A stretch of 64,000 bases of DNA from Blasia pusilla (taxonomy: Eukaryota), in contig CM114271.1 of NCBI GenBank assembly GCA_050084515.1, forward strand, positions 2,232,001 through 2,296,000. Direction: 5' to 3'. The translations under genes were made by a program, and so were the position numbers. This document shows, one piece after another, positions 1-57,767 of this stretch. Positions within the stretch are counted from its first letter, which is position 1. The number at the start of each line of letters is the position of its first letter. Under the pieces are notes generated by a model, which did not search any database, had not been told where the DNA came from, and worked only from the letters and a program-made list of their open reading frames with translations.

Positions 1-1439
1 TTGGACCACAAGATGGATGGATTTCTCAAGTCTTCGAAAGTGTGGGGTGATAAATAACATCAATACCTTTCCAGATTCGTTCTCTCTCCTCCTCGTCACT
101 TCTCGAATGATCATATTTTGTGGTTGGTCCTCCTAATTTGGGTGCATGTATTTCACGCCAATTGTTTTTATTTTTGTTTTTATTCTTGTGCTTTTCTTGC
201 CTCACGTGTGCATTGGTGAGTTTTGGCCATTTTCTTTATCGTTAGTTGGATTATGTAAAGGAGAACAACGAAAAGAGTAGTAGTAGTAATTATTATGATC
301 ACCATTATTATAATGATATTGTGTGTGTTATAATAATAACATGATGAGGCTTTTGCCTTGTTGGATTCTTCCATTTCTTTATGACCAATCATGGATGGCT
401 TGGGCGTTTGTCCTTGCCATGTCTTGGAGTGTAGGGAAGTACACTAGGACAATCCTTGCATCCACGTTGGGGTAGTGACCATATCACTTTGATGATGATG
501 TAAAAATTTCGTTTGGTGAAATGATTAGTGTGCACCTTGAAGAATCCCTCTAGTAAAAGTGATACAATCAGCCCCATGCATTTGGATTTAGTGGATTGGG
601 GGGTAAAGTGTGGTTAGGGGAGTTTCCTCTTCTTTTTCTTTTTCTTTTTTCTTTCTTTCTTTCTCATGCAGATTGCGTTGTGGTGATGTAGTCGATTTTC
701 ATGCCCTTTTGTTGTTGGATAGAAGCTGAATTGGGCCAATCTTCTTGGTGATGTTGTCCATATTTGATAGATAGGCATGGAGAGTGGTGCAAAATATTTG
801 ATAGATATGCATGAAGATTCCAACTGAATTCCAATGTTAACATTTCCAAAAAAGAAATCTTGCCCACCATTGCAAAATTGACTACACCTCTCCTACAAAG
901 ACACATGTTCTCCATTCACCCTAGAGAAAAATCAAGAATACATTATCTTAATATAATAGATGTTGGTTGCCTTTACAATTCAACACATGCTAATGCTACT
1001 AAAGATGATTCTCTTAACATCCCTAAAAGGTGAACTAAAAGATGTTATTTTGGGAGGACGAAATTGAAGTTTACTACTTGTCCAAAATGATTTTTGGAAA
1101 CTACTTGAGTGTTTAAGTTGAATCAATATAATATTATGAATGTATGGGCTCGGCATGTTCATGAGTACAATCCTTCAAACTCGATTATTTTATGGTTAAA
1201 TTTCATATATCTTGATCATATATAACAAAATTTTTTGAGCATCCAAGCATTTCGAGTTCTTTAATAATTAGGGGTGAATAATGATTTTGGATCTTTGAAT
1301 CTTGTTTCTTTCTTGTTGGATGAGTTCTCCCATCTCAATTTTGTGCTATCATTTCTCTTCCATTTCACTCCGCCATCATACTCTTCCCCTATCCTTTATA
1401 CCAAAGTCCCAAGAAACATTCCAAAAGGAAAGTGAATTT

Positions 1440-9525: not shown

Positions 9526-9735
9526 TCAAGGAATCCAAGCAAGACGTTGAGTCAAACATACCATGTACTACTCTCATAAATATCCATCACCTAGTCCTAG
9601 TATGGTGGCCGCACTTCTGGCTAATTCACACAACATACAATGCAAGCCTATAGATATCCTAGCCAAACTTAGGTCAAGTGCTCCATCAATGTTGAAAAGG
9701 TGACAGGACACCCATAGTACTTCCAAAATATACTA

Positions 9736-9870
9736 TGTTGTGCGCATACATATCGCTACACAACATACATCGCTGGTCGCATCTACACCACACAACGCCG
9801 ATCTTCCTCACACAAGGGTTGATCCACACATGTATAAAAATCAACTCATACATATACATGGAGATCACAC
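9736..9870 (-). repeat. Left terminus of element 1: inverted copy of repeat A (17917-18052)
   Basis: The reverse complement GTGTGATCTCCATGTATATGTATGAG...GTATGCGCACAACA aligns over ~135 bp with 17918-18052. Confidence 0.93.
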
Positions 9871-10559
9871 CTCGGGCCAGCCCCCCCCCCCTCCAACGTG
9901 GTAGGACCGGACGTGGTGGAAGGTCAACGTGGTGACAAGGCTACCAAGTGGGGGTGGATGTGGTGGAGCTGAGTACGTGGTAGGAGTGGAACCATACCAG
10001 GTTGAGTCAGGTTACAGGCCGCGTGTGGGGATAGGCGGAGAGGTTTGCGCGACATGATGTTTTCGGGCATGACGAGGATTTGCGAAAATTGACGATGGAG
10101 TGTCAGTGCGCATGATGCCGACGGGTTGTCCGCATCTGTTGACGGGAGGATCGACCCGTTGGTTGAGGAGAGTGTCGTGTTGCAGAGGTTGCCGTGTCAC
10201 ATGAGGGAATGCGTGTTGACGATGCAGTAGGTTGGAGGGCGTGATCAGGTTACCCATTCGAGTCCTTTTTCGCACTTGTCGTGTGTGATTGAGAGTGTTG
10301 GATATCGGGTAGTAGCTGGTACTAGGTGGGTGCAATGATGGTGACGAGTGTAGATTCTGTTCATGTGTAGCATGTTGGTGGATATACGGCGGTTGCCACA
10401 TAGGGGTCGCATGTATGACCGGAGAGTGTCGCTAGGTTAGGTGAGTAAGTTGGGAGGCTTATGGTGAGCCCGAGTGTCGAGGGTGCATGAGGTCGGGTAT
10501 GTCATCACGAGACTGATGTTAGCATAGGTGAGCTAGTGAGGAGTGTGGGAGACTCTCAG

Positions 10560-12200
10560 TGAGTCTGAGTGCTTGAGCGGATGAGATAGGGTTTGTCATC
10601 ACGGCGTTCTTCCAGGGTTCAGAAGAACAAGGTAGTGCAAGCAGTGGTAGTGGTGTGACACGGAGTGGAGTGAGATACCGAGGGGTTACCAGTGAGGAGC
10701 TACCTTGACATCCATCCGTGGTTGGATCGTCATCACTAGACAATGGGTCTGGTGACAAGATCGCACACAGAGACAGTAGTACTTAGCAAGAGATGGACGA
10801 CATGGGCCATCGGGGCATGCGTCGTTTCTTGAGTGTAGTGGGCACCATCGACTTAGATGATTTTATCGAGGAGTTCGACACATGGTGCAACTTTGAGGAG
10901 ATACGGACTCTGACATGGTTCAACCCTTTCATGGCATGGAAGGGGTTGTTCCAGCACTTGGAGGGTTCTCTGATGGATGACTACATGGAGTTTTGATCAC
11001 TATATTCAGTAGAGATCGATGCCTGGAGGATGTATTGGGCTCTAGGGTATGTGTCCAATAGTGGTCGCGAGGCATATGATGGCATTGTGAGAGGAGAGAG
11101 ACCCACACCATCAGCTCGGAGACTAGATGGAGAGGAGGGCAGTGAGATAGGCAATGTGGTAGAGGCCTCTGGTGGTAGAGGGCCACCCAGCTTCAGGCAT
11201 ATGATGGCACAGAAGTGGAGTTCTTTTGACAGATTGGGGAAGAGCTAGATAGGCGTGTGGTAGAGGACGACAAGTCAAGAGTCTGGTGGATTTTCAGCGA
11301 CGATCGGGTGAGAGTCTGAGAGAGGCATTCACACGCATGAGGAGGTTGATCATTGCTACGTATGGAGTGACTAAGGCACAGTTAGTCCAGTATTGGTATG
11401 GGGTTCTGGATCGAGAACTACGGAGGAGAGTCCGAGATGCGGTGTTGATTCACACAACGAAGCCCACATTGAAGGTGGTCTTTGAGTTGTCTGAGCATAT
11501 TGAGCTCAACATGAGTGAGGAGCAAGTAGTGACCGCTGGATTTTCTCGAGAGTTGACGGGTCCACGAGCGCCGGTGACCCCACAGGTGCCACAGCGAGCA
11601 CCAGTACCACGGGAGCGGGCCAATGTGCCCAGAGAGCAGGGCGGGTACCGTGAGCCTATGAGACATGACCCGTACCTACATATGTTGCCCAACAGGGACC
11701 AATGTGGTCTTGTTGGAGGTGTGGAGGGGCCCATAGGCAGAGAGACTGCCCACAGCATGGGAGAGGACCACAAGCGCCTCCGATTGCTCAAGAGCCACAG
11801 AGGATGGCCCCACCACAACACTCGTGTGACTATTGCCACAGATATGGTCACACTAGGGATAGGTGTTTTGACCTTCGCCGAGAGGCACGTCCAGAGGTAG
11901 GCCAAGGGCTTGGGGGCGGTCGTCCTGGAGGAGGTTGGGGAGTTCTTCCTGGACGTGGTGGTAGGGGACCACCACCAGCCAGAGGAGATGGAGCAGGAGC
12001 ACCAGAGCCGACTCTTCTCTCACGCATCGATCAGTTGGAGTAGAGGATTGCTGCCATGATGATGATGCAGCTTAGGGAAGGCACGGAGCTGCGAGCAACT
12101 AGTGTGACTCCAACTTCTACCTCTTACCCTGACCCGGGTGAGGATCTCACCATTATGGGGTTTATGTGTAGTGCAGCCTAGGTTGAAGCAGCTGTAGTGA
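10560..12200 (+). pseudogene. gag: gag of element 1 with two Zn knuckles
   Basis: Motifs GVTRSGVRYR and DFQRRSGESLREAFTRMRRL, plus knuckles CWRCGGAHRQRDC and CDYCHRYGHTRDRC (ORFs 10793, 11286, 11702). Boundaries approximate. Confidence 0.8.
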
Positions 12201-12709
12201 TGACTCAGGGGGTTGCGAGAGGCACCGAGCCATCGAGAGGAGTTGAGATTGACCCACTAGAGGGGACCGATGGGCGGCAGGCCAGGGTTCCATGGTCATT
12301 CACATTGTCGGAGGCACTACACACACCATCGATGGTGCCTTGACAACCAGCGGTGCCTATAGCTCAGGCATGTGCGTCGACGTCACAAGGAATGGGAGTG
12401 ACAACTCCTATGCCGGCTCGAGTGCAGTCAGTGTCGACCATAGTGTTGGAGGTGGCCACCAGAGTGAGTCAGACTCCACTATTTTCCGCCATAGAGTTGG
12501 CAATGTTAGGAGTTGGACCAGCTGAGGTGTTCCGGCTGGCCGCCACGTTGTGTGAGCGTGGAGAGGTGACTGCTTCTTGTTCAGAAGTAGTTGAGGGGGT
12601 GGTGGACTTGCCCTCAAATTTGGTGCTCGGGACGTTCCCCACAGAGTCGTGGCATGCGGCGGCGACGAAGTTGGTAGACATGCCAGCTTGACCAGCCATA
12701 GAGCGAGCA

Positions 12710-13130
12710 GTGGTGACACCTGGAGTAGTCTTACTGGATAACCGAGCTCGAGTATTTCGCTTGGTTAATCCGACGGGGATAGCATACCACCTGCAGCGCG
12801 TCCTACTTGATTCGGGAGCGCAACCCTTGATGTTAGGGAAGGCGGCGTGTTTAGCATTGGGGTTACAGAAGGCAGACATTGAGCCTTGTCCCTTCCAGAT
12901 ATAGACCTCAATTGGGGGCGTGTCACCCACGCAGTATATGACTCGACAGGAGATAGTTGTTAGAGTCCAGCCAGAGCATGCAACGGATAGTGCTATGGTG
13001 CGCACATGTGCGATTACGACACCAACTGAGTCGTACAATGTGTTGGTGGGTAGTACAGTGTTATATCCCCTAGGATTCATCCTTGACTTCTGGGAGGAGA
13101 CCATTGCTTATCGGCCAGGGTGGCGGTCAA
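12710..13130 (+). pseudogene. retroviral-type aspartic protease of element 1
   Basis: Catalytic RVLLDSGAQ near 12800 and a C-terminal YNVLVG motif. Confidence 0.85.
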
Positions 13131-13524
13131 GTAACGGCCGGATGAGTCAGTTACCCGTGCAGTTTGCGAGACGAGGTGATCGATCACGGGACGAGTCTGT
13201 GACCACGTTGGCAACTTTCACACGTAGTGTTAGCTGGCCAGGAGAATTGTTGGAGGGGAACGCACATGCAGAGGATGTCCCAGTAGCGGATAGTCCCACG
13301 GAGAGACAGGCCATGGCGGGTGTCTCTTCCCATGTTGGCGAGACCTCTTCACCATTGTGGGGTAAGACTCGAGAGCTACAGAGGAGTGCCGACGACCTTG
13401 TGAGGCAGGCGTGGAGTCATGCTTTTATCCCGGAGCAGCGAGAGTCACGTGGCGATCGGGCTCTTGGAGTGGAGACGTTGACCCCACTGGATACCGCACC
13501 CATTGTGTGGCAATGCCCAAAGGA

Positions 13525-14490
13525 GGGTGTTAGGGTGTTAGATCTCTTTGGAGGGATTAGCACCGGATTGGTTGCAGTATTGCAGGCGGGCATATGGGTG
13601 CATCAGTACCTTTATGTGGAGAGAGATGAGACCCCGCGGCGAGTATCATTACGTCACGTGGCAAGATTGGTCTAGAGGTATCTTGAGTTGTTGCCGGTAT
13701 CTGCAATACGGGGATATCAGCATACACTACCCGCCGACATCTCTTTGGTGGGGGTGCAGGATCTGGACAGAGTTGGCACCATTCATTTGGTGATTGCTGG
13801 ATGGCCATGTCAGGGTCATTCATCAGTTGGCCGAGGATTTGGATTGCAGGATCCGAGGTCAGGGATGTTTTGGGAGATGTTTTGCGAGTAGTACGACATT
13901 TGGAGGGGAGTCAGACATGTTCTCCAACATACATTTTGGAGAACGTGCCGTTGTTGGAAGACACTCGTGCACGTGTGATGATGAGTGTGCATCAGGTGAG
14001 GTCCTGGTTGGGACCTGATGTGTTGCTAGATGCGGCGAGAGTTGGATCACGTGCCCATCGTCCACGACTGTGGTGGACGAACCTGATACCATCAGAGGTA
14101 CTGAGTTGAGCATACGATGGAGTCCAGAGAGCACCACATCTCATAGTGGATGCTATTTTGGGCTCAGGGCAACGATCTCAAGTGGTGACACGGGATGATA
14201 GACCACCGTTGGCCATGGCCAATAGGGTGGGGGAGTTGAGGGCAGCCTTACCTACGTTGGTGAGCTTCCCAACATCCCATACCTTTCATTAGGGAGGGCC
14301 AGGCATGATTTGGGATGAGATGACCGGAGCATTGGAGGAGCCTACAGCAGATGAGGGCGAGCGCGCCATGGGGTTCGTTACCGATACTACAGCGGTGCTA
14401 GGGATGATTGAGGCATCCTGGAGACAGGTGTTGGGGCAGGAAATGGACCTCAACTGTCTCACATGGATAGTCAGCCTAGGTATGGCTGAG
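13525..14490 (+). pseudogene. C5 DNA cytosine methyltransferase domain (DNMT3-like) within pol of element 1
   Basis: Ordered motifs: I VLDLFGGISTG, II YLYVE, IV IAGWPCQGHS, VI YILENV, VIII AHRPRLWWTNL, IX ERAMGF, X LGQEMD. Interrupted by stops and frameshifts. Confidence 0.9.
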
Positions 14491-14861
14491 CAGAGATGGA
14501 TGCAAGTGTCATCCATGCCGTCACGTCCACGAGTTGGACCATTGCCTACAGGGTCTGTACAGGCATTGGCTGGGGGCGAGACGAGGAGAGATAGGTACCC
14601 ATGGACTTCCTGGGAGGTTGTTCGAGCAGAGAGTGCGAAGGCGGCTAGAGTAGCACATGTTCATTTTTTCGGATGTAGAGCATGGTGTATGAGGTCAGAG
14701 TGGAGTGGCTGTTGCGGAGGTGGCTAGGGTTGCAACATAGCAACCAAAGCCGGAGGCTGTGTCCTCTCCAAGTGAGGTCACGATGGAGACTTGGGAGCCT
14801 ATGATAGGTCTCAAGTTGATAGGAGGAGAGCGACGGTGAGTTCATAGGTTTCTGAGAGGGC

Positions 14862-16210
14862 ATGTGTTTGCGCACCACGGGTACGCTGAAGGGTCTCGGG
14901 ATACGGATTGAGTTGGCTAGTGATACGCTGATCTTTCGTCGATCCTACAGGTATTCTGATATGGAGCGAGCCTTGATTCAGAGCAAGAGTCAGGACTTGT
15001 TGGAGGCAGGACTTGTGGAGTTATCACATGGGGAGTATGCATCTGCCACAATCATGCCGGCCAAGAAGGATATGTATGGCAATTGGACGGATAGGCGGAT
15101 GTGTGGAGATTACCGTCCTATCGACCGACAGACGAGGTCAGATCAGTACGCCATGCCTACTCCTGAGGAGATCTTTGATGCGGTAGGGCATGCAAAGATC
15201 TTTAGTACTTTAGATCTCCAAGCTGGCTATCATCAGCTTCCTATCAGGTTGGAGGACAGGGACAAGACAACATTCTGGGGGATAGATCGGTTCGAGAGAG
15301 ATTGCTCGTATCAGTGACGGTTCTTACCATTTGGGTTGAAGAACGCGCTTGCAGAGAGTTATGGATAGGATTCTAGCTGGCTTGGATTTTGTACGATGTT
15401 ACATAGATGATATTCTTATCTTCAATTCCACGATTGAGGAGCAAGAGTGACACCTAGAGGAGGTGTTCTGGCGATTGCAGTTACATGGACTGAAGTTACA
15501 TCCAGGCAAGTGCAGATTCTTTCAGGAGCAGATTGAGTACTTGGGACACACCATATACCCGAGTGGGTTAGGCGTTCAGCACACGAAGGTAGAGGCTATT
15601 GCGCAGATTCCACGCCCTACAAATGTGAGTCAAGTCTGAGCATTTCTTGGACTGGCGAACTTCTATCAACGGTATGTCAAGGGTTTTAGTGCGATAGCAA
15701 AGTCTTTGACCTTGTTGACGAGACTTGATCAGGTTTGGTTGTGGGGAAATGATCAGGGGCGAGCATTTCAAGAGCTCAAGGATAGGTTGACGTCCTCACC
15801 CATTTTACAGAGACCGGTTAGGGGTTGCCTATTCCAGTTACATACGGATTCGAGCATGTTGGGTCTAGGAGCACTGCTTACTCAGAGGGATGACGAGGAG
15901 AGGGAGTTCGTTGTGGCTTACGCGAGCCGATCGAACAACATTGCAGAGTCGAAGTACAGCTCCTACGAGGGAGAGTGCTTGGATGCAATGTGGGTTGTGG
16001 CACATTTCATATGCTATTTATTTGGAAACCCTTTCACACTTATCATTGATCATCAGCCGTTGAGGTAGTTGATGGAGTCTGACAAGCTTACGGGAAAACT
16101 TGCCAGATGGGCTCTATTACTACAGGAGTATGAGTTTGAGGTGGTTCATAGGCCAGGTCGGCTGAACCAGGATGCGGATGGGTTGAGTTGTAACCCATGT
16201 CCGAGTCAGA
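14862..16210 (+). pseudogene. reverse transcriptase and RNase H of element 1
   Basis: RT motifs RMCGDYRP, FSTLDLQAGYHQ, LPFGLKNA and CYIDD (~15397-15411). RNase H motifs FQLHTD, YEGECL, IDHQPL, NQDADGLS. Confidence 0.93.
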
Positions 16211-16559
16211 GAGACAACACAGGAGCTCGATGGCACGGAGAGAGTGATGAGGAGATGATGCCCGGTTGGCATGCATCTGCCTATCTTTGTTGGTTGACTA
16301 TGGCAAGTCAGCCACATGTGATGACTCCAGTGGTGGGGTTGGATGATGAGTCTTTGGATCCAGAGGTCAATGAGGAGGCGACAGGTGGTCGTGATATCCA
16401 TGACGACATGGAGGTTGTGGAGTTCTTGCGCACTGGCATCATAGCGAGCACAGTGAGTGCTAGGGAGCGGGATCGGATCCTACAGAGAGCCAGGAGGTTC
16501 AGGTGGGAGGGGACTCACATTTTGCGGGTATGGGGAGATGGTAGGATACGAGTGGTACC

Positions 16560-17833
16560 TCATCCTTCCCAGCGAGCACGTGTAGTGCGACATACCCATG
16601 AGGAGTTGGGACATTTGGAGTAAAGCGTACTTACAGCTAACTCCAGATTCAGTATTGGTGGCGCGGCATGCATACTGGGGTACAGTAGTTTGTGGCCAGA
16701 TGTATGGTATATGATAGAGTGCGAGCATCCTTCAATGCTCCCACTCCGCAGTTACATCCCTTGCCGATTATGGGTTTAGGTTATCGGTGGAGTTTAGACT
16801 TTGCGGGACCTTTGTCATTGACGGGGCGTCATCATAGATACGTGTTGGTCATGGTGGAGCATTTCTCCAAGTGGATAGAGTTGGTGGCACTATCGGACAA
16901 GGCGATCGAGGGAACAACTTATGTGTTTCTAGATCGTGTGCTTAGTCACTTTGGTGCACCGGCGGAGGTGTTGACTGACCAGGGTACGGAGTTTAGAGGA
17001 GAGTTTCAAGCATTATAGATCAGGCGCTGATAGATCACCGCACCACGTCCAAAGATCATCCTGAGGCGGATGGGTTGGCGGAGAGAGTGGTACAGACGGT
17101 GAAGAGAGGATTTCGCAAGTATGGCTTGCAACGGGGACAGTTGAGGGAGTGGGACCTACAGTTGTCATGGTTGGCTATGGGTTATCGCTTTAGTCGGCAG
17201 GCATCCTTGGCGTCATTTTCACCGTACTTTTTGCTCTTTGGGAGAGAGCCAAATTTACCTGTAGCGATTCGACGTGACATGGAAGAGGTATTAGATCTTG
17301 ATGATCAAGATGTGTGGGTACAAGCATGTTCTCAGAGGGCGGAGGTTATTCGTAGAGTTATGCCTATGGCCTTTGAGAACTTAGCTATTGCTCACCATAG
17401 AGATACATTGAGGTACACGACCATTTGTGGAGGAGATTATCGTCTAGGGATTAGGAGGTTTCATCCTAGAGACTACGTGTATTTATAGCAGGCGACATCC
17501 ACGACGCTAGATGTCATTGCAGGGCGCACGATCCTATGTGTGCGCGAGGTATTATCGACCGGAGTCCTCATGTTGGAGGGACGGGATGGTATGGTTTGGA
17601 AGGATCATGTGCGCAATTGTGTGCCATGTCATCTTCCGAACGTAGATGGGACAGTGGATCCGAGCTTGGAAGTGGTACCTACAGACTTGAGGTGTATGTT
17701 GTGTGGATCTGCGAGGGGTGCAGCCACCATGTTGGTATGTGATGGTTGTTCTCGAGGATGGCATATGTCATGTATGACCCCCCCCCCCCTCTTGATGTAG
17801 TTCCCACAGAACGATGGATTTGTCTGAGATGTG
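16560..17833 (+). pseudogene. DDE integrase with C-terminal PHD finger of element 1
   Basis: HHCC-type HEELGH...C region, core WSLDFAGP / LTDQGTEF / GLAERVV, then C4HC3 PHD CMLC...CDGC...WHMSC...WICLRC (17692-17833). Confidence 0.9.
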
Positions 17834-17916
17834 TACAGGGTAGTAGGTCATGTCAGAGAGATGTGATATTTTCTATCTGGAGTTGGAGGGATCCAACTGC
17901 CAACTAGGGGGGCGGT

Positions 17917-18254
17917 TGTGTGATCTCCATGTATATGTATGAGTTGATTTTTGTACATGTGTGGATCAATCCGTGTGTGGGGAAGATCGGTATTTTGTGG
18001 TGTAGATGTGACCAGCAATGTATGTTGTGTAGCGATATGTATGCGCATGACAACTGTCACATCTGAGTAGCTGATAGGCCGAGATCTATCGTGGATAGAG
18101 CGTAGGAGCCAACAGACTATCTTGAGTGTAACTTTGTCCCACGGTGTCGAATGAGGTTGAGGATAGGTCCATTATGTCAGGAACGACGTTCCTAACACAA
18201 TATCCACGCTCTATCCACGATAGATCTCGGCCTATCGGCTACTCAGAAGTGACA
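17917..18254 (+). repeat. 3' region of element 1: A (17917-18052), AC spacer, B (18055-18103), 102-bp spacer, inverted B (18206-18254)
   Basis: The 49-bp B arms match as an inverted repeat with 2 mismatches. Junction reads CATGACA-AC-TGTCAC. Confidence 0.93.
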
Positions 18255-19158: not shown

Positions 19159-19491
19159 CATGGTTGCTCCAAAATAGACAAGTGCATCCCTAGAACGAAC
19201 ATGGACGAATAAGTTTGGACACATGGAAATGGATTGCAAAAAGTGGAGCCCAAAGTTTATAGTTCATGGTGGAAGGCAAGGCAAGGGCGGGTGGGGAAAT
19301 AAGGGGGGAGGGAGTGGAGGTTGGAGGTAGGAGGAGGAAGAAACAAGAAAGTGCGGATCACAAAAGCAAGTGGGGGGATGAGAAAGAAGGGGGAGATTGG
19401 GCCCACACAAAAAATTCCTTCTCTGGGATGGACATGAGTCCATGGACATTGACATCTCCATAGACATGGATTTTGTCCATATGCAACCTTG
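19159..19491. mobile_element. hAT-type MITE (same family as 9244-9525)
   Basis: TIR CATGGTTGC...GCAACCTTG; perfect 8-bp TSD ATCATTGA (19151-19158 and 19492-19499). Confidence 0.87.
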
Positions 19492-20190: not shown

Positions 20191-21221
20191 AACTATGCAA
20201 AATCTAACTTCGAACCTCTTGTTTTAATTCATACTAGTATCATGCATGTGTTATGCATGGACGAGGGAAAAATTTTCCTAGCACCCCTTAAGTCTTTAGC
20301 CCTTTTTATTGAACTACTCTTACAATATAGCATGTGTCAACAATAGAAAATCTTTCAAAAGATATGTGTCAACAGTAGAGGAGGGTTTCTCCAACCCCAC
20401 CATATGTTAAAATTAAAATTTTAAAAATTTATTTGACCCAAAAGTTTTATTTTTTCTGAAACGTGTCGTGCGAATCCACATCGTCATACAACATACATCG
20501 CTGACATACCATATTCACATACATACATAACATAGACGAGAGCATCCACAAACACAAGTGTACCACGACTGAAATCCGTGTAAGACCTACTGTCATAAAA
20601 CACGTATAGAATCACATACAATCGAGCCAAACCCACTCCACAATGGAAGAATCCAGGTCGAAGCTTGTGGGAGCCACCATAGCCAAGAGCTCTACTCACT
20701 ACCAAGGCTAACTCCCAACGCAATAGGCTCAAATCAAAGAACTAACTGTTCTTTGAGTGCACTCCACACTATATCCTCCAACCTAAGAGTGGGCTCTACT
20801 GGAAAAGTTATCCTCAACTAAGTAACCCCCAACCTTATGTATAAAACCGCATCTCTACCTAGACACTACGGCCCTACATAAGGTATGGCCTCTACTAGCA
20901 CACTATACTCTACGACATAATCCGTATGGTCATGACAGCTGTCGTGCAAATCCACATCGTCATACAATATACGTCGTTGACATACCATACTCACATACAT
21001 ACATAACATAGAAGAGAGCATCCACAAACATAAGTATACCACAACTCGCCCCCCTTACTGGCGGTTAGATCCCTCTAACTCCCAAGTAGCCCTATACATC
21101 TACTACATGCTATACACCTTCGTGGGTGCACGAATCAGAAGGCCGGATGCTAGGTTGCCCCATCGTAAGTCGCACATCTGTAATCCATATCATGCAAAGA
21201 TCAAGTCATCTACCTCTCCTA

Positions 21222-22165
21222 AATACATCAAGGACAAACCCACCTTCCAGTAGGAACAACATCCATACGTGGAGTCAAACACATCATGTGCCAACCCCTA
21301 GAACACCGATCACACACCAACATACGGGTTGCGTTACCAACAGACCCACACAACATGCACCTCAAGCTAGCACGTATCATGGCTAAGCTTGGGTCAACAG
21401 TACCATCTACATTTGGAATATGACATGGCGCACAATTACGTACGTGGTCCTTCCAAAAAACTCCATCACGACCCTCCAACATGAGAACTCCAGAAGCTAA
21501 CACCTCGTGCACTCGTAAAATAGTGCGGCCTGCCGTCACATCCAACGTTGTTGGTGCAATCTGCTGCAAATAGACATAGTCCCCCACATGGAACCTACAA
21601 ATCGATGGTCGATAACCTCCACCCCGAATGGTTGCATTCCGCAACGTATCCCTGTGTTGAGCAATGGCGAGGTTCTCAAAGGCTGTTGGCATAACTCTCC
21701 AAAAGAGCTCTGCCCGCTGAGAACACACTCTCATCCACATCTCTGGGTCATCAAGGTTCACCACCTCACTGGACTTCCGACAATTCTTCTTTGGCAAGTC
21801 CGGATCTTGGCCATATAACGTAAAAATAAGGTGAGAAGGAAGCCAAGGATGCTTGGCGATCGACCTATACCCCATGGCTAACCATGGCAACCGAATATCC
21901 CAGTCTCAAGATGCCCCTTCTGTAGGCCATACTTGCGCAATGCCCTCTTCACCGTCTGAACCACACGCTCAGCCAAACCATCCGCCTCTGGATGATCTCG
22001 AGACGTGGTCCGATGATCAATCAACGCCTTGTCATACATGACCTGAAACTCACCCTGAAACTCTGTACCCTGGTCGGTCAGCACTTTAGCTTGTGCACCA
22101 AAATGACTAAGCACTCTATCAAGAAACGCATACGTCGTTCCCTCACTTGCCTTGTCAGGTAATGC
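21222..22165 (-). pseudogene. integrase core, C-terminus and PHD finger of element 2
   Basis: LTDQGTEF...GLAERVV; PHD CMLCGSVGNATRMLVCDRCSRGWHMMC...WVCP*C. Confidence 0.9.
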
Positions 22166-22980
22166 TACCTCCGATAGTAGTTTGCCAATCCCATGAATGC
22201 CCGAACTCTACTCACATCTGTCGGACGCGGAATAAGTGCAATAGCGTCCACCTTTGCTTGCTGAACTCCCAAACCACCTGGATAGATCACATGACCCAAG
22301 TACTCAACATCCTCATGGAAGAACTTACACTTTCCTGGATGCAAACGTAGACCATGAGCTTTCAACCGCTCAAACACAATCTACAAATGTATCTGATGCT
22401 CCTCCACCATGTTACTGAACACCAAGATATCATCAATGTAACATCGAACAAAATCCAACCCTGCTAGGATCCTGTCCATCACTCTCTGAAACTCGGCAGG
22501 TGCATTCTTCAACCCAAAGGGTAAGAATTTCCATTGGTACAAACAATCCTTGCCATGAGAGTTGACACCCCAAAATGTTGTCTTGGCCTTGTCACTCTCT
22601 CGAATCGGCAATTCATGGTATCCTGCCAGAAGATCCAAAGTATTGAAAATCTTTGCCTGTCCCACCACATCAAAGATCTCCTCAGGTGTAGGCATGGCAT
22701 ACCTATCGGCCTTGGTTTGCCGATTGATAGGACGGTAATCTCCACACATCCGCATATCCGTCTAGTTGCCATGCATATCCTTTTTAGTAGGCATAACAGT
22801 GGCTTATGCATACTCTCCATGCGACAAATCCACTAATCTAGCCTCCAAAAGGTCCAACGTCCTACTCTGAATCAGGTCCCTCTCCATATCACTATATCGG
22901 TAGGGACGACGAAAGATTGGCATATCATTAGCCAAATCAATCCGTATATCGGGTCCAACCAAAACACCCAACTCCTTCAT
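22165..22980 (-). pseudogene. reverse transcriptase of element 2
   Basis: RMCGDYRP, LPFGLKNAP, CYIDD, EYLGH, GLANYYRR. Confidence 0.93.
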
Positions 22981-23369
22981 GCTAAAGGCAAAACAACTCT
23001 TATAAGCATATAGGAACTCTGTCAAGCGTCGTTTCTCACCTCCCGTAAGCTTGGGCCCAAGTAATGGCTCCCAAGTCTCCTCCACTGATACACTAGAGGG
23101 AGAGGACAATGCCATTGGTCGCACATAACCCCTCACAAGATGGTACACCCTTAGCTACACCATCAGCTGAGCAAATAACTCCTCCACCAGCATGAGCAAC
23201 CAACTCCACATGCCCAGCCATTACATCCCATTTACTCCAAGGATGCAAAATACTACTCTCCTCGCCCCCAACCGATGCCTCTACCGTCGCGGTAGCCATC
23301 GAGCTCATCACAAGGGGTGGAAGACCCACAGACATAGTCCGAAGTCGACGCTGCTCGGCCATACCAAGA

Positions 23370-24330
23370 CTCAAAATCCAAGTCAAACAATTCAGGTCCA
23401 TGGCCTAACCCAACACATGAGGTCGTGAAGCCTCAGAAATGGAAGCAACCGCTGTCACACTAGTAGCAAATCCCATTGCACGCTCTCTCTCATCAGTGTT
23501 AGGCTCCACCAACTATCGCACATGAGAATCCCATACAAGCCCGGGACCACCTTCCCTGTAGGTATGTGACGAGGGAAAACTCACAAATGTGGGTAGTGCC
23601 ATCCTAGGCTGGCCCACACGGTTCACCACTGCCATGGGTGACCGATCAATAACCCTCACCACCTGAGAAAGTCGCCCAGTATCCAAGATACTATCCATTG
23701 TAAGGCAAGGTTCCCACTGCACTGCATCATATGCTCGACGTAGAACCTCCCTAGGCAACAAGTTTGTCCACCACAAGCGTGGACGATGTGCACGCGAGCC
23801 AACTTGCGCTGCATCCAACAACACCGCTGGTCCAATCCAAGACCGCACCTCATGAACACTTGCCATCATCCGGATCCGAGTGTCACCAACAATGGAACAT
23901 TCTCCAGAATGTAAGATGGAGCACGTGCTTGATGAACCTGAAGATGTCGTAACACCCGTAACATCTCCCAAAATAATCGAGACCTAGGGTCGTGTAATCC
24001 CTCAATACGACCAGTACGTGTATGACCCTGACATGGCCATCTCGCAATCACCAAATCCACAGGACCAACCCTCTCAAGGTCCTGCGCCCCCAACAATGCA
24101 ATGTGTGACGGCAAAGCATGCTGGTATCCACGAATAGCTAATGGCGGCAACAACTCAGGATATCTCCGCATCAACTGACCAATATGTCGGGATGAGACTC
24201 TCTGGGCCGTCTCATCTTGCTCCACATACACGTATCTCCGCACAAGAATACCGGCCTGCAACATTGCAGCCAAACTAGTGCTAATTCCACCAAAGAGATC
24301 TAACACACAAATGCCCTCCAAATGGATCTT
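23370..24330 (-). pseudogene. C5 DNA cytosine methyltransferase domain of element 2
   Basis: VLDLFGGIS, YVYVE, DLVIARWPCQG, YILENV, AHRPRLWWTNL, ERAMGF and LGQAMD in order. Confidence 0.9.
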
Positions 24331-24682
24331 CGCCATACAATGGGTGTAGTATCCAAAGGGGATAACCCAACTGGACCAGAAGTAGGAGTCCGCCATGGGG
24401 ACTCCTCTTCCTCGTGAGGTATAACAGCCTCACACCAAGCCTCCTGCACTAGGCGATCAGCCTCCTGCCATAGTGCACCGCCTGAACTCCAAAGTAGCAC
24501 ATACAACGATGAGGATGCCACAATTTTGTAGCCACTGCTACAAAACTAGGGACCTCCTCTACCTCCTCATGTACAAGAGAATCTACAGCAGAAACATTAT
24601 CCTCCAAAAAGTCTCATGGCCAAGTGACTACTCCACTAAAACCAGCCACAGATGCTAACACCGTTGGGAAAGACCCTCCTGG

Positions 24683-25105
24683 TCAAGCCCCATAAATAAA
24701 TCTCACAGGAACTTGGCTCATACGTCCATCCCCGGACTGCCAACCAGGTCTATAAGACGCTATCTTAGTCCAGTAATCCATATGAAAACCCATCGGGTAC
24801 AATATTGCTCCTCCAACTAGTACATCATACGACTCGGCTGATGTGACCACTATAGGTACTCCCAACCGGGAGCTATCAGTCGCATGATGTGGTCTCAACT
24901 GTACAGAAAACTTCTCCCATGTCATGAATTGAGACCTATCATTGGCTCCTCCAAGTGATGTTTGAATCTGGAATGGGCAAGGCTCAAGCTCTGACCTCCG
25001 AATACCCAAACCAATACATGCCGCCTTTCCCAACATCAAAGGTTGGGCACCAGAGTCTAACAAGACTCTATCTAGTCTATACACCTGTCCTGTAGTACTC
25101 AACAA
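24683..25105 (-). pseudogene. aspartic protease of element 2
   Basis: RVLLDSGAQ...YDVLVGG. Confidence 0.85.
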
Positions 25106-25559
25106 TCAGAATATCCCACTCCGGTTGTCCAACATACATACACCAAGTGTAAGCCTCTTACAATCAATGGCTGGCTGGGCTGGTAATGCATCCATCTTTG
25201 CCGCTGCTGCCTACCAAGTAGCACTAGTACTCAATGCTACACCTGACATAGAGGGTCGCTCCACCACAACACCATCATCCACCTCAGCACATGTAGCAGT
25301 AACACCCCCACGTTCACACAACGTGGCTGCTAGCTGAAATACATGAGCTAAGTCAACTCCTAAAGCCATCACCGTGGGCAGAAAAACAATGGGAATCCTA
25401 ACACCGAAGTTGCCATCCACAATATCAAGATGGATGCTACATCCATGTCTACTACACGCGATGTAGATGCCTCAGTCCCCACTGTAGGCTCAATAGGCTG
25501 CGTAGGAACCATGGATGGAGTCCTAAGCACCTTAGACAACAAGAATGATTGGGGAAGCC

Positions 25560-27208
25560 CAGCCTACCTCCCAGCCTCACCCCTCTGTGGGTCCAACTCC
25601 ACAGTAGCACCAAGTAGCTCTGACGCTCGAGTGGCCTCTCGTAACTGCAGCTGATGCCTTAACCTGTGGTGCACTCGCCATATAAGAGAGATGATCCCCT
25701 CCATAAGAGGTGGAAGCCCCTGCTCCCGAACCTGCTCTATCCTGGATACCAGCCATAGTAGCCAACTTCTGCTCCAACTGCTAAATCTTGGCAGCCATAG
25801 CTGACTCTGTCGTAGTGGTAGGGGTAGCCACCGTAGGCTCTCCAACCACAAGTCCACCTCTACCACCTCTACCACCTCGACCTCTCGGAGCTACTCCACC
25901 ACGGCCGCGGCCTGATCTCAACTCTGGATGAAGATCAAAGCAACGCTCTCGAGGATGACCTGGTCTCCCGCAATGATCACACTGAGTTGGGGCCGACTGA
26001 GGCCCATCCTCCAAAGTCCGTCTCCCATCCTCTTGGGGACAAAACCTCTTAACATGATCACCTCCACACGTCCAACATGACTGTCCTTGCTGCGGGGCAG
26101 CAAATGAAGGCAATGGTCTCTGCGCAAGTGTCCCTCTAGGACCTGACTAAGGTTGTGTGTACCCCCCACCACTCCCACTACTACTACTACCACCACCACT
26201 ACTACGAGAATGTGAGGTGGACTGCTTAACACGAGAAGTAGTAGTTGTATCCCTACTGAATGTGGATGTCACCACTCTCTCCTCCACTATGTTAAGCTCA
26301 ATCGTCTCAGATAGAGCAAACACATGGGTCAATGTGGATGAATCATCACTCATAAGAGTAGCATCACGTACCCTGTGGCGCAACTCTTTGTCCAAGATCC
26401 CATACCAAAACTGGACTGCCTAAGCCTCAGTCACATCCTGGGTAACTGAAATCAAGCGTCGCATACGAATGTAAGCCTCACGAAGACTCTCACCAGTCTT
26501 TCGCTCAAATTCCTGAAGACTTCTCAACTTCTCTGTCTTCACTCCTTGATAGTTCTTCTTCAACCTCTTGAAGAACTCTGCAACCGGGTTGAACGATGGT
26601 GGGGCACTAGTACCTCCACTAGTACCCCCACTAGTACCTCCATGGGTACCTCCACTGGTACCCCCACTCCGGCTCGTACTCGTACCACTCAACGTCGGGT
26701 TGGCTGGCATAGTAGGAGCACTACTACCAATACCACCATGGGTGATAGACACATAGCCTGGAGACCAATATTGTCTCCACGCCTCAATCTCAGCACCATG
26801 GTCCTTCCTAAACTCATGGTAATCATCCATGGGTGGTCCCTCCAAGTGCTGAAACAACCCCTTCCAAGCCAAGAAGGGTGTAAAAAATGTGGCGTTTTGC
26901 AACATTTGCATATCACACCACGTATCAAACTCCTGCATGAAGTTCTCCAACTCAATGGTGCCCACTGCACCCGAGTATCGTCGTGGGCCCTTCATGGCCC
27001 CATATATCCCGTCCATGTCCCAAATCAATGGAACTGCAACACTCGATAACAACGTAGAAGACTCGGTGTTTGGAACGCCCTCGTCCTCCTCTTCTTCAAT
27101 CGTCGGAAGTGGAAAAGGTAGCCGATACCTCAATCCACTCCGTGTGAAACCACCAGTGTCCGCACCACGGTCCCCAACCAGACCACCAGACAGCTCCGTG
27201 ATGACCAA
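25560..27208 (-). pseudogene. gag: gag of element 2
   Basis: ORF 26420-27208 (GGFTRSGLRYR...FERKTGESLREAYIRMRRL) and knuckles CWTCGGDHVKRFC and CDHCGRPGHPRERC. Confidence 0.82.
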
Positions 27209-29226
27209 CGCCGATGCCGCACCACCATCAAAAAGTAACCAAGTGACGTCGATGCCGCTGTACTATTCTAGCTCTACTAGCTATGGATGTAGGCAACCTA
27301 ACCTGTCATCACCACAAGAAGCCCCCCACGGTCTACTGGTCATCACTCCAGCCTCACTATTGGTAGCATACAGGAGTAACACTACTCTGGAAATCAGCGT
27401 CAACCCTAACAATGGGCGCGCAAGCAAGAAGCATCGATGGAGGGGATCCAAATACAGGATGTCCAACGACAATCCTCCAATCACAAATGGAAATCAAGGT
27501 AACACAATCCACCAAACGTGGCGCCCCCTGAATCCACAGAACCCACCACACAATTCTAACGTAATAGCTACTCCGCCGCGGGTCGATGACGTGCTAGTCG
27601 GACTCGCAGCACCTGAAAATATCACATGCATGGAGAGGCTACACCATACTATGCGTTAGAGGTCCATCAACCAAAAACCTGAGATGCATAAAACGCCTAA
27701 CACATCTCCAAACAACACCAAATGAGCTACACCAGTGTGTACACTAGCATAGTTAAGAACTTAGCAGTTAAGCGTCTTCTAGGCAGAATAGCCCAAAGAT
27801 GGGTGATCAGTTATGCAACACTCAAATCAAAAATCTTGCAAAAAATGCCTCACGCCCAAGCAAGCAAGTTTGCTTGCTTGCTCCTTACTCCGCCTCTCAC
27901 GCCCTCACGCCCACTCGCCCACTCGCCCCGAGCTACCACAAGTTGCCTCGAAGCCTCGAAGTCTCGAAATGCTTGAGACTTACCCCTATCGCCACGCTTT
28001 GTCATGCTTCGCTATGGAGAGAGGCCCAACCAGGGCACCCCCAACGGGATAGGCATCTCCAACAATAGACGAATCACCAACCAACCAGCCCCTCCGATCT
28101 GCTGTCCACCATAGCCAGACCTTGAGCTAGTCCGCAAAATTTTGATCAGCAATTACTCCACAAATCCTTGACCAAAATTGAATCTATTTCAACCAAAATT
28201 CAATTGATCACCATAGCTATCTCTCCACAAAGAATCAGCTTCAACCAAGCTCTGTACTTTGAGCTAAAAATCAGACAAACTTGCTGTCCATACACCTCCG
28301 AAATTGCAAATCCGACAGCGCTTCTGCCCAGATTCATGCACGCAAAAATCCGCAAGGCTCCACACACTCAAGCAGATAGCTTCACATGAGATCACAATAC
28401 AAGTAGCAATAGGAACCTCTCACCCGATCTGGATGAACTTCAACAGAGCTTCCGCACTCCAAGCTCTCCACATCAGAAAACCGCCGAATACGAACCAGAA
28501 TCTTCAATCCTTGATAACTTCCAACTCCCTTGACGGAATCCGGTGATCTAAAGCGCGGTGGAAAGCTCTCAGCAAGGCGCTTCTTTCCCAACCAACCACG
28601 CACCAGATTCCCACCTCCAACATAGGCCAAAAGCCACGAACATCCACTGTTGATTACACAATCAGCCCTAACAAGATCCTATTGATCAACAATCGAAGCT
28701 ACCATCGATCTACTCTAGTTCTTTGAATGAAATCCGTATAAGACCTACTGTCATAAAACACGTATAGAATCACATACAATCGAGCCAAACCCACTCCACT
28801 ATGGGAGAATCCCTGTCGAAGCTTGCGGGAGCCACCATAGCCAAGAGCTCTACTCACTACCAAGGCTAACTTCCAACGCAACAGGCTCAACTCAAAAAAC
28901 TTATTGTTCTTTGAGTGCACTCCACACTATATCCTCCAACCTAAGAGCGGGCCCTACTGGAAAAGCCACCCTCAACGGAGTAACCCCCAACCCTATGTAT
29001 GAAATCGCATCTCTACCTAGACACTACGGCCCTACATAAGGTATGGCCTCTACTAGCATACTATACTCTACGACATAATCCGTATGGTCATGATAAACGT
29101 AACTTAAAAAATCCTTCCCAATCAAGCTTGAAAATTCTTTAAGAGAATCACAAAATATTTTTTAATGATGTGGAAAAAAAATTTGATTGAAGAAGTCTTG
29201 AGAAAAAATAAAAGATATTCTTATTA

Positions 29227-30213: not shown

Positions 30214-31007
<794 letters not shown>

Positions 31008-57600: not shown

Positions 57601-57767
57601 GGTGTGAGATGGTGTAGAGAGAGATTGGATCTTACTTTATTGGAGATATTTTGGTACTTCTCGCCTCTGTGTATGGATGCCATGAGTTAGCATGGGATCG
57701 TGTGTGTTTGTGTGTGTGTTCAATGACAGCGATGCATGTTGTGTAGCGATGATGTATGCGCACGACA
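48687..57767 (+). mobile_element. Retroelement 3: same family type, split-direct-repeat layout with a 3' internal deletion
   Basis: TGTCACG...CACGACA ends with TSD TACA (48683-48686 and 57768-57771). 48945-49199 is repeated at 57386-57639 and followed by an A-type segment at 57640-57767. gag ~50739-52300, PR DSG ~52955, MTase ~53645-54240, RT ~54690-55440 (CYIDD), RH ~55600-55970, IN ~56350-57385. Confidence 0.92.
53645..54240 (+). pseudogene. C5-methyltransferase domain of element 3 with the catalytic centre (motifs IV-VIII) deleted
   Basis: Motif I LDLFGGISSG and YLYVE are present, then the sequence jumps at ~53855 to the post-motif-VIII region. ERAMGF and LGQAMD are retained. Confidence 0.85.

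Follow-up and report, generated by a model that had tools for sequence, protein, structure and literature searches.

In a family of Ty3/gypsy-type retroelements from the liverwort Blasia pusilla, the two ends at which copies are inserted also meet head to head inside the element's own terminal repeat, separated by a spacer of two nucleotides. This junction lies within the LTR that reverse transcription should define, in its U3 part, and it is this placement that is new. The elements were studied in a 64,000-nt stretch of contig CM114271.1 (termed the window, to which all coordinates refer), whose copies el1, el2 and el3 were compared alongside 80 related loci from metagenome contigs, here termed relatives.

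The elements are ∼8.5–9 kb long and encode gag, protease, a C5-DNA-methylase, RT, RNase H, a DDE integrase and a PHD finger. Pfam domains RVT_1, RT_RNaseH_2/RT_RNaseH and rve were matched in el1, el2 and el3, with matches to PHD and DNA_methylase too, and a tblastn map confirmed the pol order RT, RNase H, rve integrase. No match to the tyrosine recombinase family (Phage_integrase) was found in the scanned subset of open reading frames from el1, el2, el3 and five long relatives; with the rve domain present, this upholds the DDE type that a preliminary description of the window had assumed for the integrase.

Two junctions were read directly in the window, catgacaactgtcaca at 18046-18061 and catgacagctgtcgtg at 20931-20946, with the letters and positions of the preliminary description. 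They parse as CATGACA-AC-TGTCACA in el1 and CATGACA-GC-TGTCGTG in el2, where the end of a segment that we term block A (∼100–137 bp, ending ...CAYGACA) meets the start of block B (∼340–510 bp, starting TGTCAYG...). For el2 the motif stands and its orientation is corrected: the element lies on the minus strand, so that the plus strand reads start of B (reverse complement), GC, end of A (reverse complement). The window holds six occurrences of GACANNTGTC where 1.5 would be expected, a count reached in 0 of 100 shuffles. Position is a stronger argument for the motif than this count, since both motifs fall exactly at the boundary between A end and B start. The outer termini of el1, el2 and el3 are the two halves of the motif without the spacer, each adjoining a 4-bp target duplication. 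What had been described, a pair of integration ends lying end to end across a 2-nt spacer missing at the true termini, is confirmed as real and general. The survey of spacer length across families that had been suggested covered 20 junctions from four subfamilies, every one with a spacer of exactly 2 nt (18 junction-bearing metagenome loci, el1 and el2; two of these loci, L068 and L072, are alike in their flanks and may represent a single insertion). Among these 20 the spacer is GC in eight, AC in seven, AT in four and GT in one; every variant is R-Y, one or two transitions away from GC. The ancestral spacer was most likely GC, making the palindrome GACAGCTGTC, and the GACAGCTGTC core of the el2 junction is a perfect 10-bp palindrome.

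Features of the window copies are collected in Table 1. The copy that the preliminary description called element 1, el1, is an aberrant fold-back copy and not the standard form, with the order inverted A, 5′-shortened body, polypurine tract, A, AC, B(1..∼150) and inverted B(49..1), and its target duplication brackets the pair of inverted A and inverted B. The inverted A is 93% identical to the internal A (compared over 17918-18047), begins 2 nt inward of the natural start of A and runs on into the shortened body. No second copy with an inverted A at its 5′ end was found among the 80 metagenome loci, and el1 is a single case. Autointegration (an inversion circle) was considered as its origin and rejected: the segment order that it predicts, worked through on paper, mismatches el1. 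The insertion interrupts the integrase gene of el0, an older copy on the minus strand whose integrase reading frame is rejoined across the el1 flanks (9529-9708 and 18294-18590). The window is full of such nested elements.

In el2 an internal deletion removes RNase H and the integrase N-terminus. The third copy, el3, runs B1 (48687-49199), body, an integrase cut after ..CAPCHL, the distal part of B2 (57386-57639, 97.6% identical to 48945-49199) and A2 (57640-57767); its deletion took the PHD finger, polypurine tract, A1, junction and 5′ part of B2. The breakpoints of the deletions in el3 and in the relative L058 were considered as marks of RNA 5′ ends, a reading that we dropped, as a mis-jump in el3's own reverse transcription leaves its complete B1 unexplained. 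The solo B-A unit has flanks CTGG and TTTG, which match at only two of four positions.

Table 1. Retroelement features in the 64,000-nt window
Feature	Position	Strand	Basis
el0, integrase C-terminal part of an older, decayed copy interrupted by el1	9529..9735, other half 18259-18590	-	tblastn map
el1, aberrant fold-back retroelement copy	9736..18254	+	repeat alignments, flank comparison
el1 target duplication ACTA	left 9732..9735, right 18255-18258	.	flank comparison
el1 left terminus, inverted block A, first letters TGTTGTGCGC (reverse complement of A end)	9736..9870	-	
el1 polypurine tract AGGGGGGCGG, adjoining block A	17906..17915	+	
el1 internal block A, last letters ...GCGCATGACA	17916..18052	+	
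el1 junction: A end CATGACA, spacer AC (18053-18054), B start TGTCACA	18046..18061	+	
el1 block B, first ∼150 nt; aligns with B start of the solo B-A unit at 30214	18055..18205	+	
el1 right terminus, inverted B(1..49), last letters ...GTGACA	18206..18254	-	
el2, split-repeat form B1-body-A1-GC-B2-A2	20464..29095	-	repeat alignments
el2 target duplication AACG	20460-20463 and 29096-29099		
el2 block A2, element's right terminus, 92% to A1	20464..20569	-	
el2 block B2, with TATA-like box and U5 hairpin	20570..20937	-	
el2 junction, element orientation ...CACGACA, GC (20938-20939), TGTCATG...	20931..20946	-	
el2 block A1 (internal copy)	20940..21046	-	
el2 polypurine tract GTAAGGGGGGCGA (element orientation), adjoining A1	21047..21060	-	
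el2 leader TTCAAAGAACTAG, adjoining B1, candidate primer-binding region	28715..28727	-	
el2 block B1, element's left terminus, 93.5% identical to B2, without adjacent A	28728..29095	-	
Solo B-A unit, TGTCAC...GCACGACA, el1 subfamily, internal (TG)n run	30214..31007	+	
el3, third copy, different subfamily, target duplication TACA	48687..57767	+	

Integrated copies start with B (TGTCAYG), end with A (CAYGACA) and are flanked by 4-bp target duplications. These match at 4/4 positions in nine of ten complete metagenome copies and at 3/4 in the other; with el1, el2 and el3, all 4/4, the full match holds in 12 of 13 complete copies, and the TG...CA ends and 4-bp duplication proposed earlier are borne out. 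At the 5′ side the order is flank|B followed by the leader in all 15 distinct ends (17 loci representing 13 sites, plus el2 and el3); neither A nor B-A-NN-B was found at any of the 15, and with B only at the 5′ end none of these copies has two complete direct LTRs at its ends. The 42 distinct 3′ ends divide into B-body-A (24 sites), B-body-A-NN-B-A (14 sites and el2) and fold-back copies (two sites and el1). The preliminary description had set against its own reading the case that other copies lack the junction and carry conventional LTRs: the junction is indeed absent from the 24 3′ ends that stop at the first A, and the conventional LTRs were seen at none of the 15 5′ ends. The layout is common to four subfamilies and to contigs from many samples, and every copy examined is degenerate.

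On a star-like tree the three forms (I, II and III) are intermingled, with 9 label changes against 9.8 in shuffles; they are outcomes, not lineages. In form II the B2|A2 joint, ...TTTTCA|GTTGTGG, consists of the B end as it stands before the leader and the A start as it stands after the polypurine tract, an identity that holds in nine distinct sites, el2 included through the variant ...GGATTTCA|GTCGTGG. At one site (L037/L038) a 19-nt filler lies exactly at this joint. A segment of 821 bp between B2 and A2 in L010/L019 was a further candidate for captured filler and proved to be a separate repeat present in many loci; it was dropped as an argument for end joining. The fold-back relatives (L001, L033/L034) carry the B end, the leader motif and the reverse complement of B(166..1), stopping at the reverse-complemented B start. 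DNA contig joints linking termini (18253-9740; 20937-20470; 29095-20470) were set aside as single low-depth paralogue contigs; they hold 7–10 odd letters between the termini, a misfit to a clean junction.

What places the junction inside the LTR is the position of two further signals. A polypurine tract, CTAGGGGGG(C/T)GA, adjoins the first A upstream in about 50 loci as well as in el1 and el2, and a conserved leader that pairs with U5 adjoins B downstream. In L062 this pairing extends over 23 contiguous bp, at -30.3 kcal/mol against -14.8 in shuffles; in el3 it is formed from different sequences, CAAAGAGAGAG with CTCTCTCTTTG, at -27.8 against -18.1. It is found in el2 too, where the leader is complementary to B positions 194-205 (TAGTTCTTTGAT), with equivalent pairing in relatives (RNA duplex energies were compared with 20 shuffles, the el2 leader being 6 nt short in that computation). 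The decayed copies L003, L017, L025, L041, L048 and L049 gave no significant pairing (z between -0.2 and +1.1). For a tRNA-iMet-type primer site, sought as a 12-nt motif with up to three mismatches, there were 37 matches where 51 would be expected, and none of them lies where the site should be; a TGG-type tRNA site is absent directly after B. The leader is termed a candidate primer-binding region, for which self-priming is offered as an analogy. With the polypurine tract immediately upstream of A and the leader that pairs with U5 immediately downstream of B, A-NN-B is the expected LTR product of reverse transcription, and the integrase sites are internal to it. The junction is thus not a relic of a circle beside conventional LTRs, as had been supposed; it is the other joint, of B end and A start, that speaks for end joining or a circle.

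Another account of the window is that of an ordinary LTR retrotransposon whose LTR is B-A (TG...CA), with the junction and the missing 5′ A as accidents such as an inserted solo LTR, truncated 5′ LTRs, nesting or assembly error. A B-A unit bounded by TG...CA does occur alone at 30214-31007, and the window is rich in nested elements. This account is nevertheless very hard to credit and is already contradicted by the present data: A is missing from every distinct 5′ end, the spacer is always 2 nt and not a 4-bp duplication, target duplications bracket the entire B...A unit, the polypurine tract precedes A and not B, and the identical layout recurs in four subfamilies and in contigs of many samples.

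Transcripts also run through the junction. Three stranded RNA runs gave sense depths of 110/143/111 for the 5′ part of B2, junction, A1, 3′ UTR and integrase end (bin 20788-21451), and of 10/14/13 for distal B2, A2 and flank (bin 20124-20787); sense transcripts thus cross an el2-type junction, the reads being 90–99% alike and from paralogues. In each of two runs 23–25 RNA molecules have a common boundary at 28934 (B position 162); from the TATA-like box the start is predicted further downstream, at about B 194 in el2. If this boundary were a poly(A) site, no R would remain; it may alternatively be an alignment break.

We consider it probable that integrase cuts the internal palindrome and inserts the element ‘inside-out’, A-NN-B being the LTR and the inserted copy a circularly permuted cDNA; the cutting itself we infer from the architecture. 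The linear cDNA would be [A-NN-B]-body-[A-NN-B], with the junction within U3. Integrase would ignore the cDNA tips and cut the palindrome on the 3′ side of each CA, with a 2-nt stagger like that of ordinary 3′ processing, and the B start and A end would then be inserted into a target with a 4-bp stagger; since the cut would fall inside the LTR, the inserted copy would be a circular permutation of the cDNA. With the B start from the 5′ LTR and the A end from the 3′ LTR, or with a 1-LTR circle cut at its junction, the product would be B-body-A. If the 5′ LTR junction supplied both ends, the natural cDNA tips would have to be joined, before integration (as a 2-LTR circle) or after it (by end joining), and the product would be B-body-A-NN-B-A, whose B|A joint would correspond to U5 end|U3 start, as from joining natural cDNA ends. 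The origin of this form would accordingly involve end joining or a circle, and a preference for the 5′ junction. It alone keeps a 3′ copy of B (R/U5), and therefore it alone could found the next generation. The fold-back copies, el1 and the two further sites, would be fold-back cDNAs processed likewise; a DNA strand ending in a leader copy and priming on its own U5 would give exactly the joints of L001 and L033/L034.

If a 2-LTR circle were cut at random, B-A-NN-B-body-A and B-body-A-NN-B-A should be equally frequent, and the former was observed at none of 15 5′ ends. Under inside-out integration this might follow if the 5′ LTR became double-stranded first, which is conjecture. The same count weighs against a second account, in which a 2-LTR circle is always the intermediate and is opened at one junction, B-body-A-NN-B-A is the sole primary product, B-body-A copies are A1 × A2 deletions and solo B-A units come from B1 × B2 recombination: such a circle has two equivalent junctions, and cutting at the other would give the missing form. 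A1/A2 and B1/B2 are direct repeats able to recombine, a solo B-A unit is present, only the junction-bearing form retains 3′ R/U5, the copy forms intermingle in the tree, filler is present in one B|A joint, and retroviral integrases have been reported to cleave palindromic LTR-LTR junctions (PMC1905944, PMC1180852), all of which this account would accommodate. B-body-A copies could indeed also form after integration through A1 × A2 recombination; such copies, however, L006 (0.023) and L002 (0.025) for example, are among those with the shortest terminal branches and need not be old, and the circle is itself hypothetical. We judge this account unlikely.

A third account, which we rate as quite improbable, borrows the replication of DIRS/Ngaro-like elements with a swapped enzyme: template jumps of RT on the internal A-NN-B would close a cDNA circle, which the DDE integrase would merely open. 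The order B1-body-A1-B2-A2 is the layout A1-body-B1-A2-B2 of DIRS-order elements, and el1 is similar to the form with inverted termini and an internal complementary region. If a unit-length circle made by RT were opened at its junction, however, the outcome would be B-body-A only and never the B|A form; 4-bp target duplications are present and tyrosine recombinase was not found in the reading frames scanned; and the polypurine tract that precedes A, the leader that follows B and pairs with U5, and the fold-back joints all agree with ordinary strand transfers of the LTR type.

The preliminary reading of the junction, as a circular intermediate resolved by integrase, is thus supported in part. 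A wider claim, which we regard as possible and a little short of probable, is that the whole liverwort lineage with its relatives moved its att sites from the LTR tips into a U3 palindrome, so that every heritable insertion would need joined cDNA ends, circular or end-joined DNA would be obligatory, and the elements would converge on a split-repeat architecture.

Elsewhere, this architecture is known from elements with another enzyme, tyrosine recombinase. Split direct repeats and internal end joints are taken as signs of the DIRS order and of circular intermediates; here they occur with a DDE integrase and target duplications, and therefore the architecture alone fails to identify the enzyme. 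Software for finding LTRs expects two complete TG...CA LTRs beside a duplication and will miss or mis-annotate the family: B-body-A copies have no terminal repeat, and in B-body-A-NN-B-A the B1 and B2 blocks would be called LTRs without duplication. If integrase does work on the palindrome, the family would be a natural system for the debated question of whether circular or end-joined retroelement DNA feeds integration, and would allow the part of host end joining in retrotransposition to be studied. Few retroelements are on record as carrying a DNA methylase of their own; with its C5-DNA-methylase and PHD cargo the family adds examples from bryophytes. No published description of this family or layout was found in a search of main texts in a collection with few subscription journals, and the available parts of PMC5784723 do not mention either.

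The family resembles other Ty3/gypsy elements in its gag-PR-RT-RNase H-integrase order, its RVT_1, RT_RNaseH_2 and rve domains, its polypurine tract, TG...CA ends and short target duplication, and in the C5-DNA-methylase of pol, as in KnitGypsy-Dnmt3 of Klebsormidium, a DNMT-carrying Ty3/gypsy (Metaviridae) element (PMC5890265). Unlike those, liverwort-type copies lack two complete flanking LTRs and have their integration ends inside the LTR, with only B, the distal part, at the 5′ end and A or A-NN-B-A at the 3′ end; the duplication is of 4 bp, a PHD finger comes after the integrase and no tRNA-type primer site was found.

Tyrosine-recombinase retroelements of the DIRS order with split direct repeats include Ngaro, PAT and VIPER, as well as TOC1 of Chlamydomonas, and the order is typically without target-site duplication. 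The layout of SymbioDIRS is given as ‘A-coding region-B-A-B’ (PMC5890265). Our elements share the X1-body-Y1-X2-Y2 termini and the internal joint of element ends (el2 and 14 distinct loci), and el1, with inverted termini and an internal complementary joint, is like DIRS1; they differ in the DDE (rve) integrase with no tyrosine recombinase detected, the 4-bp duplications and the LTR-type polypurine tract and U5-leader.

Retroviral 2-LTR junctions have 4 nt between CA and TG and arise only in a by-product circle. Integrase cleavage of the palindromic LTR-LTR junction in such circles is described for HIV-1 (PMC1905944, PMC4372172) and foamy virus (PMC1180852). The present junctions likewise consist of abutted CA...TG ends forming a palindrome, on which a DDE integrase would act, and circular or end-joined DNA would likewise be the source of integration-competent ends. 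Unlike in retroviruses, the CA-NN-TG junction is inherited with the element, within U3, and integrase appears to act there regularly.

Bacterial insertion sequences of the IS3, IS30 and IS256 families are DNA-only elements that transpose via circles with abutted inverted repeats, the spacer coming from the donor flank. With these our family shares a DDE enzyme and abutted ends a few bp apart, here a putative substrate; it differs from them in that the junction is copied via RNA and reverse transcription, as RT, RNase H and sense transcripts over the junction attest, and in that its spacer is constant.

The window carries three Ty3/gypsy-type retroelement copies (el1, el2 and el3) of ~8.5–9 kb, with mutual DNA identity of just 70–76%, together with fragments. 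Pfam domains RVT_1, RT_RNaseH_2/RT_RNaseH, rve, a C-terminal PHD finger and a C-5 cytosine DNA methylase were identified, and a tblastn map gave the gene order gag-PR-DNMT-RT-RH-IN-PHD; no tyrosine recombinase was found in the scanned ORFs and five long relatives. The nearest annotated proteins are from Marchantia polymorpha, Calypogeia fissa and Sphagnum, pointing to a liverwort-like host, and all window copies carry stops and frameshifts. Each element is an island of 50–55% GC against a background of ~40% (10001–18000, 20001–28000, 50001–58000), with strong sense-strand GC skew (+0.18 to +0.30; negative for the minus-strand el2).

Retroelement copies, terminal repeat blocks (A, B) and selected domains in the window; 1 and 2 denote first and second (3′-side) block copies in element orientation
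Feature	Position	Strand	Remarks
el1	9736-18254		target duplication ACTA; aberrant layout
el2	20464-29095	-	order B1, leader, body, polypurine tract, A1, GC, B2, A2
el2 B1	29095 to 28728	-	leader then body downstream
el2 polypurine tract		-	GTAAGGGGGGCGA; directly before A1
el2 A1	21046 to 20940	-	GC spacer then B2
el2 B2	20937 to 20570	-	
el2 A2	20569 to 20464	-	
el3	48687-57767		target duplication TACA; B1, body, truncated integrase, distal B2, A2
Solo B-A unit	30214-31007		
C-5 cytosine DNA methylase domain (PF00145)	23516-24429, 13523-14661, 53609-54440	-, +, +	in pol between protease and RT; motifs DLFGGIS, WPCQ, ENV
PHD finger	21231-21360, 17690-17790		after integrase

The preliminary description had noted two att-like ends abutted with a 2-nt spacer. 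Read directly from the window sequence, these motifs, catgacaactgtcaca at 18046–18061 and catgacagctgtcgtg at 20931–20946, are real and hold across the family, each being the exact boundary between block A (~100–137 bp, 3′ end ...CAYGACA) and block B (~340–510 bp, 5′ start TGTCAYG). The pattern GACANNTGTC occurs six times in the window against 1.5 expected (at least six in 0/100 shuffles), but position at the A/B boundary is a stronger argument than this count. The spacer of the junction, A-NN-B, is constant at 2 nt in 20/20 cases (el1, el2 and 18 related loci, two of which, L068 and L072, are similarly flanked and possibly represent a single insertion). Its letters are GC (8), AC (7), AT (4) and GT (1); every spacer is purine-pyrimidine and, where not GC itself, one or two transitions away from it, so the ancestral junction was probably the perfect palindrome GACAGCTGTC, whose centre lies in CAG/CTG contexts in which deamination may be expected.

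The layout is clearest in el2, which is bounded by AACG on either side and has B1/B2 and A1/A2 identities of 93.5% and 91.6%. In el3 the integrase is cut after ...CAPCHL and runs straight into the distal half of B2 (97.6% identical to B1), followed by A2, and the junction region is deleted. An isolated RT fragment (48094–48441; 90% to el3 54856–55181) lies just upstream of el3, outside its target duplication. The el1 copy interrupts the integrase gene of an older copy on the minus strand. On the left it ends in an inverted A, 93% identical to the internal A; this inverted A starts 2 nt inside the natural A start and is joined to a 5′-shortened body; its right part reads polypurine tract, A, AC, B(1..~150), inverted B(49..1). 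No second example of such an inverted-A end was found among the 80 related loci described below. To the left of el1 and in the stretch separating it from el2 are two pairs of direct matches (65–90%; 9243–9509 with 19158–19451, and 9018–9048 with 19885–19915), non-colinear and with A-like minus-orientation pieces among them; they are remains of older copies. The solo B-A unit contains a perfect (TG)n run of ~217 bp (30556–30772), and block A of el3 and of the metagenome copies has shorter GT-rich runs in the corresponding position. The GC-rich end of the window (62001–64000; 55%, negative GC skew) is possibly a further minus-strand copy running off it.

With the integrase C-terminus as query, metagenome contigs yielded 80 loci, in which A ends ~446 nt past the integrase match. 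Loci with a common flank were merged, and those without a readable 3′ end were left out, either because the sequence ends too early (L005, L007, L009, L022, L024, L026, L028, L041, L043–L046, L053, L059, L063, L070, L071) or as too decayed or interrupted (L031, L051, L061). Three 3′ layouts were distinguished: form I, A with flank directly after (24 distinct sites); form II, A-NN-B-A and then flank (14 distinct sites); and form III, A-NN-B, a leader motif, inverted B(166..1) and then flank (two sites, L001 and L033/L034). One further site runs from the junction to the contig end (L027) and one is a deletion copy like el3 (L058). Many copies end at the first A and lack the junction, a correction to the preliminary description. 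A divergent subfamily (63–69% identity in the query region) has the same forms, and the three forms I, II and III are intermixed in a tree built from the 3′ region (9 changes of the form I label against 9.8 in shuffles); they are alternative results of a single process rather than lineages. An unclassified short mobile element, a non-coding repeat of ~821 bp starting TGTCGCAACC (L010 1592–2412, L019 1738–2558), is inserted in A2 of one copy and occurs in >20 loci at 68–79% identity.

The 5′ ends of 17 loci (13 distinct sites), as well as those of el2 and el3, read flank|TGTCATGACC...B...TTTTCA|CTCAAAGAAC, and in all of these A before or after B1, or a second B, is absent. Target duplications match 4/4 in nine of ten complete metagenome copies and 3/4 in the other, forms I and II both being represented. 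The abutted ends and 4-bp duplication of the preliminary description are thereby borne out, and its integrase action at the junction is probable.

The junction is nevertheless part of a larger unit. A purine run CTAGGGGGG(C/T)GA adjoins the first A in ~50 loci, el1 and el2, while no purine-rich stretch precedes B2. Directly 3′ of B1 is a conserved leader whose first 13–24 nt repeat, in inverted orientation, one arm of a hairpin located in B's distal half, and a TATA(A) box lies ~30 nt upstream of this arm. Leader–U5 pairing in L062 has 23 contiguous pairs (−30.3 kcal/mol against −14.8 for shuffled leaders); el3 reaches −27.8 against −18.1 through a different sequence, CAAAGAGAGAG with CTCTCTCTTTG in place of CAAAGAACT with AGTTCTTTG. 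The pairing is not significant in several decayed copies. No tRNA-type TGG primer site was found, and the leader presumably resembles the self-priming leader of Tf1. In ordinary LTRs, the polypurine tract marks the start of U3 and the primer region the end of U5; with the tract before A and the leader after B, reverse transcription should yield A-NN-B as the LTR, and the junction, internal as first described, falls within its U3. Internal deletions recur in which the integrase/PHD region is joined to distal B (el3 at 57386; L058 ~149 nt past the match) or exactly to the A start (L050, ~44 nt past the match); their right breakpoints are at or close to reverse-transcription landmarks, namely the predicted RNA start and the plus-strand origin.

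RNA reads from three stranded runs with the same species label are sense-oriented on both families. Depth is 110/143/111 at 20788–21451 (B2 5′ part, junction, A1, 3′ UTR, integrase end), 94/116/81 in the next coding bin and just 10/14/13 at 20124–20787 (distal B2, A2, flank); transcripts therefore cross the junction, and most stop short of A2. Nearly all reads show 90–99% identity and so come from paralogues. A shared edge at 28934 (B position 162; 23–25 molecules in each of two runs), upstream of the predicted transcript start (about B 194), is either a poly(A) site, leaving no R, or an alignment break. The 40 nt at 19984–20023 attract 98–212 reads in each run. These reads have long loose ends to either side whose letters match el3 block B (48790–48857), which suggests that the el3 subfamily is transcribed much more strongly than el1 or el2.

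From this structure we infer a mechanism in which the cDNA would be (A-NN-B)-leader-body-polypurine tract-(A-NN-B). Integrase would recognise the junction palindrome and nick after CA on each strand, the 2-nt stagger corresponding to the dinucleotide taken off in ordinary 3′ processing, and would insert the B start and the A end into a target cut with a 4-bp stagger. Form I would arise from ends of different LTRs, or from one junction of a 1-LTR circle. It may instead be a later product of A1/A2 recombination; some of the shortest tree branches belong to form I copies, which is compatible with either origin.

Form II would take both ends from the 5′ LTR junction, with the natural tips being joined either as a 2-LTR circle before integration or by end joining afterwards. 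Its B2|A2 joint, ...TTTTCA|GTTGTGG, is the natural B end plus the natural A start with no added letters at nine distinct sites including el2 (there the subfamily variant ...GGATTTCA|GTCGTGG), and one site has a 19-nt filler exactly at the joint. The joint looks like the U5|U3 joint of joined cDNA tips; the preliminary description is corrected in that the evidence for end joining lies here and not in A-NN-B. If a 2-LTR circle were cut at random, B-A-NN-B-body-A should be no rarer than form II, yet this layout was seen at 0/15 5′ ends; were it as common as form II (~1/3 of ends), 15 successive misses would have a probability in the order of 0.001 by simple arithmetic. The 5′ LTR may turn double-stranded long before the 3′ LTR; alternatively, B-A-NN-B-body-A may be lost faster through B/B recombination.

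The same cutting of junctions, acting on fold-back cDNAs, would give form III and el1. In form III, B-end and CTCAAAGAACTATG are followed by B(166..1) in reverse complement. Fold-back of a leader-copy-ended DNA strand onto its own U5 arm, followed by self-copying, would give exactly this, with the copy terminating at the reverse-complemented B start, the place at which cutting of a regenerated junction would be expected. For el1, a broken end within the 5′ UTR would have been the joining partner of the natural A start (minus 2 nt). Only forms II and III keep a 3′ copy of B, and only these would be transcribable into replicable RNA.

Our coverage of the literature, incomplete and without supplements, yielded no description of these elements or of a split layout with integrase, PMC5784723 included. 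Elements of the DIRS order have split direct repeats in the same layout as B1-body-A1-NN-B2-A2, one being given in a legend as ‘A-coding region-B-A-B’ (PMC5890265); the elements described here differ from them in their rve integrase and target duplications. For HIV-1 and foamy virus, integrase is reported to cleave palindromic LTR-LTR junctions (PMC1905944, PMC1180852, PMC4372172). The retroviral junction is present in circles only, unlike A-NN-B. KnitGypsy-Dnmt3 shares the DNMT cargo, and the text on it describes its termini simply as LTR Gypsy termini (PMC5890265).
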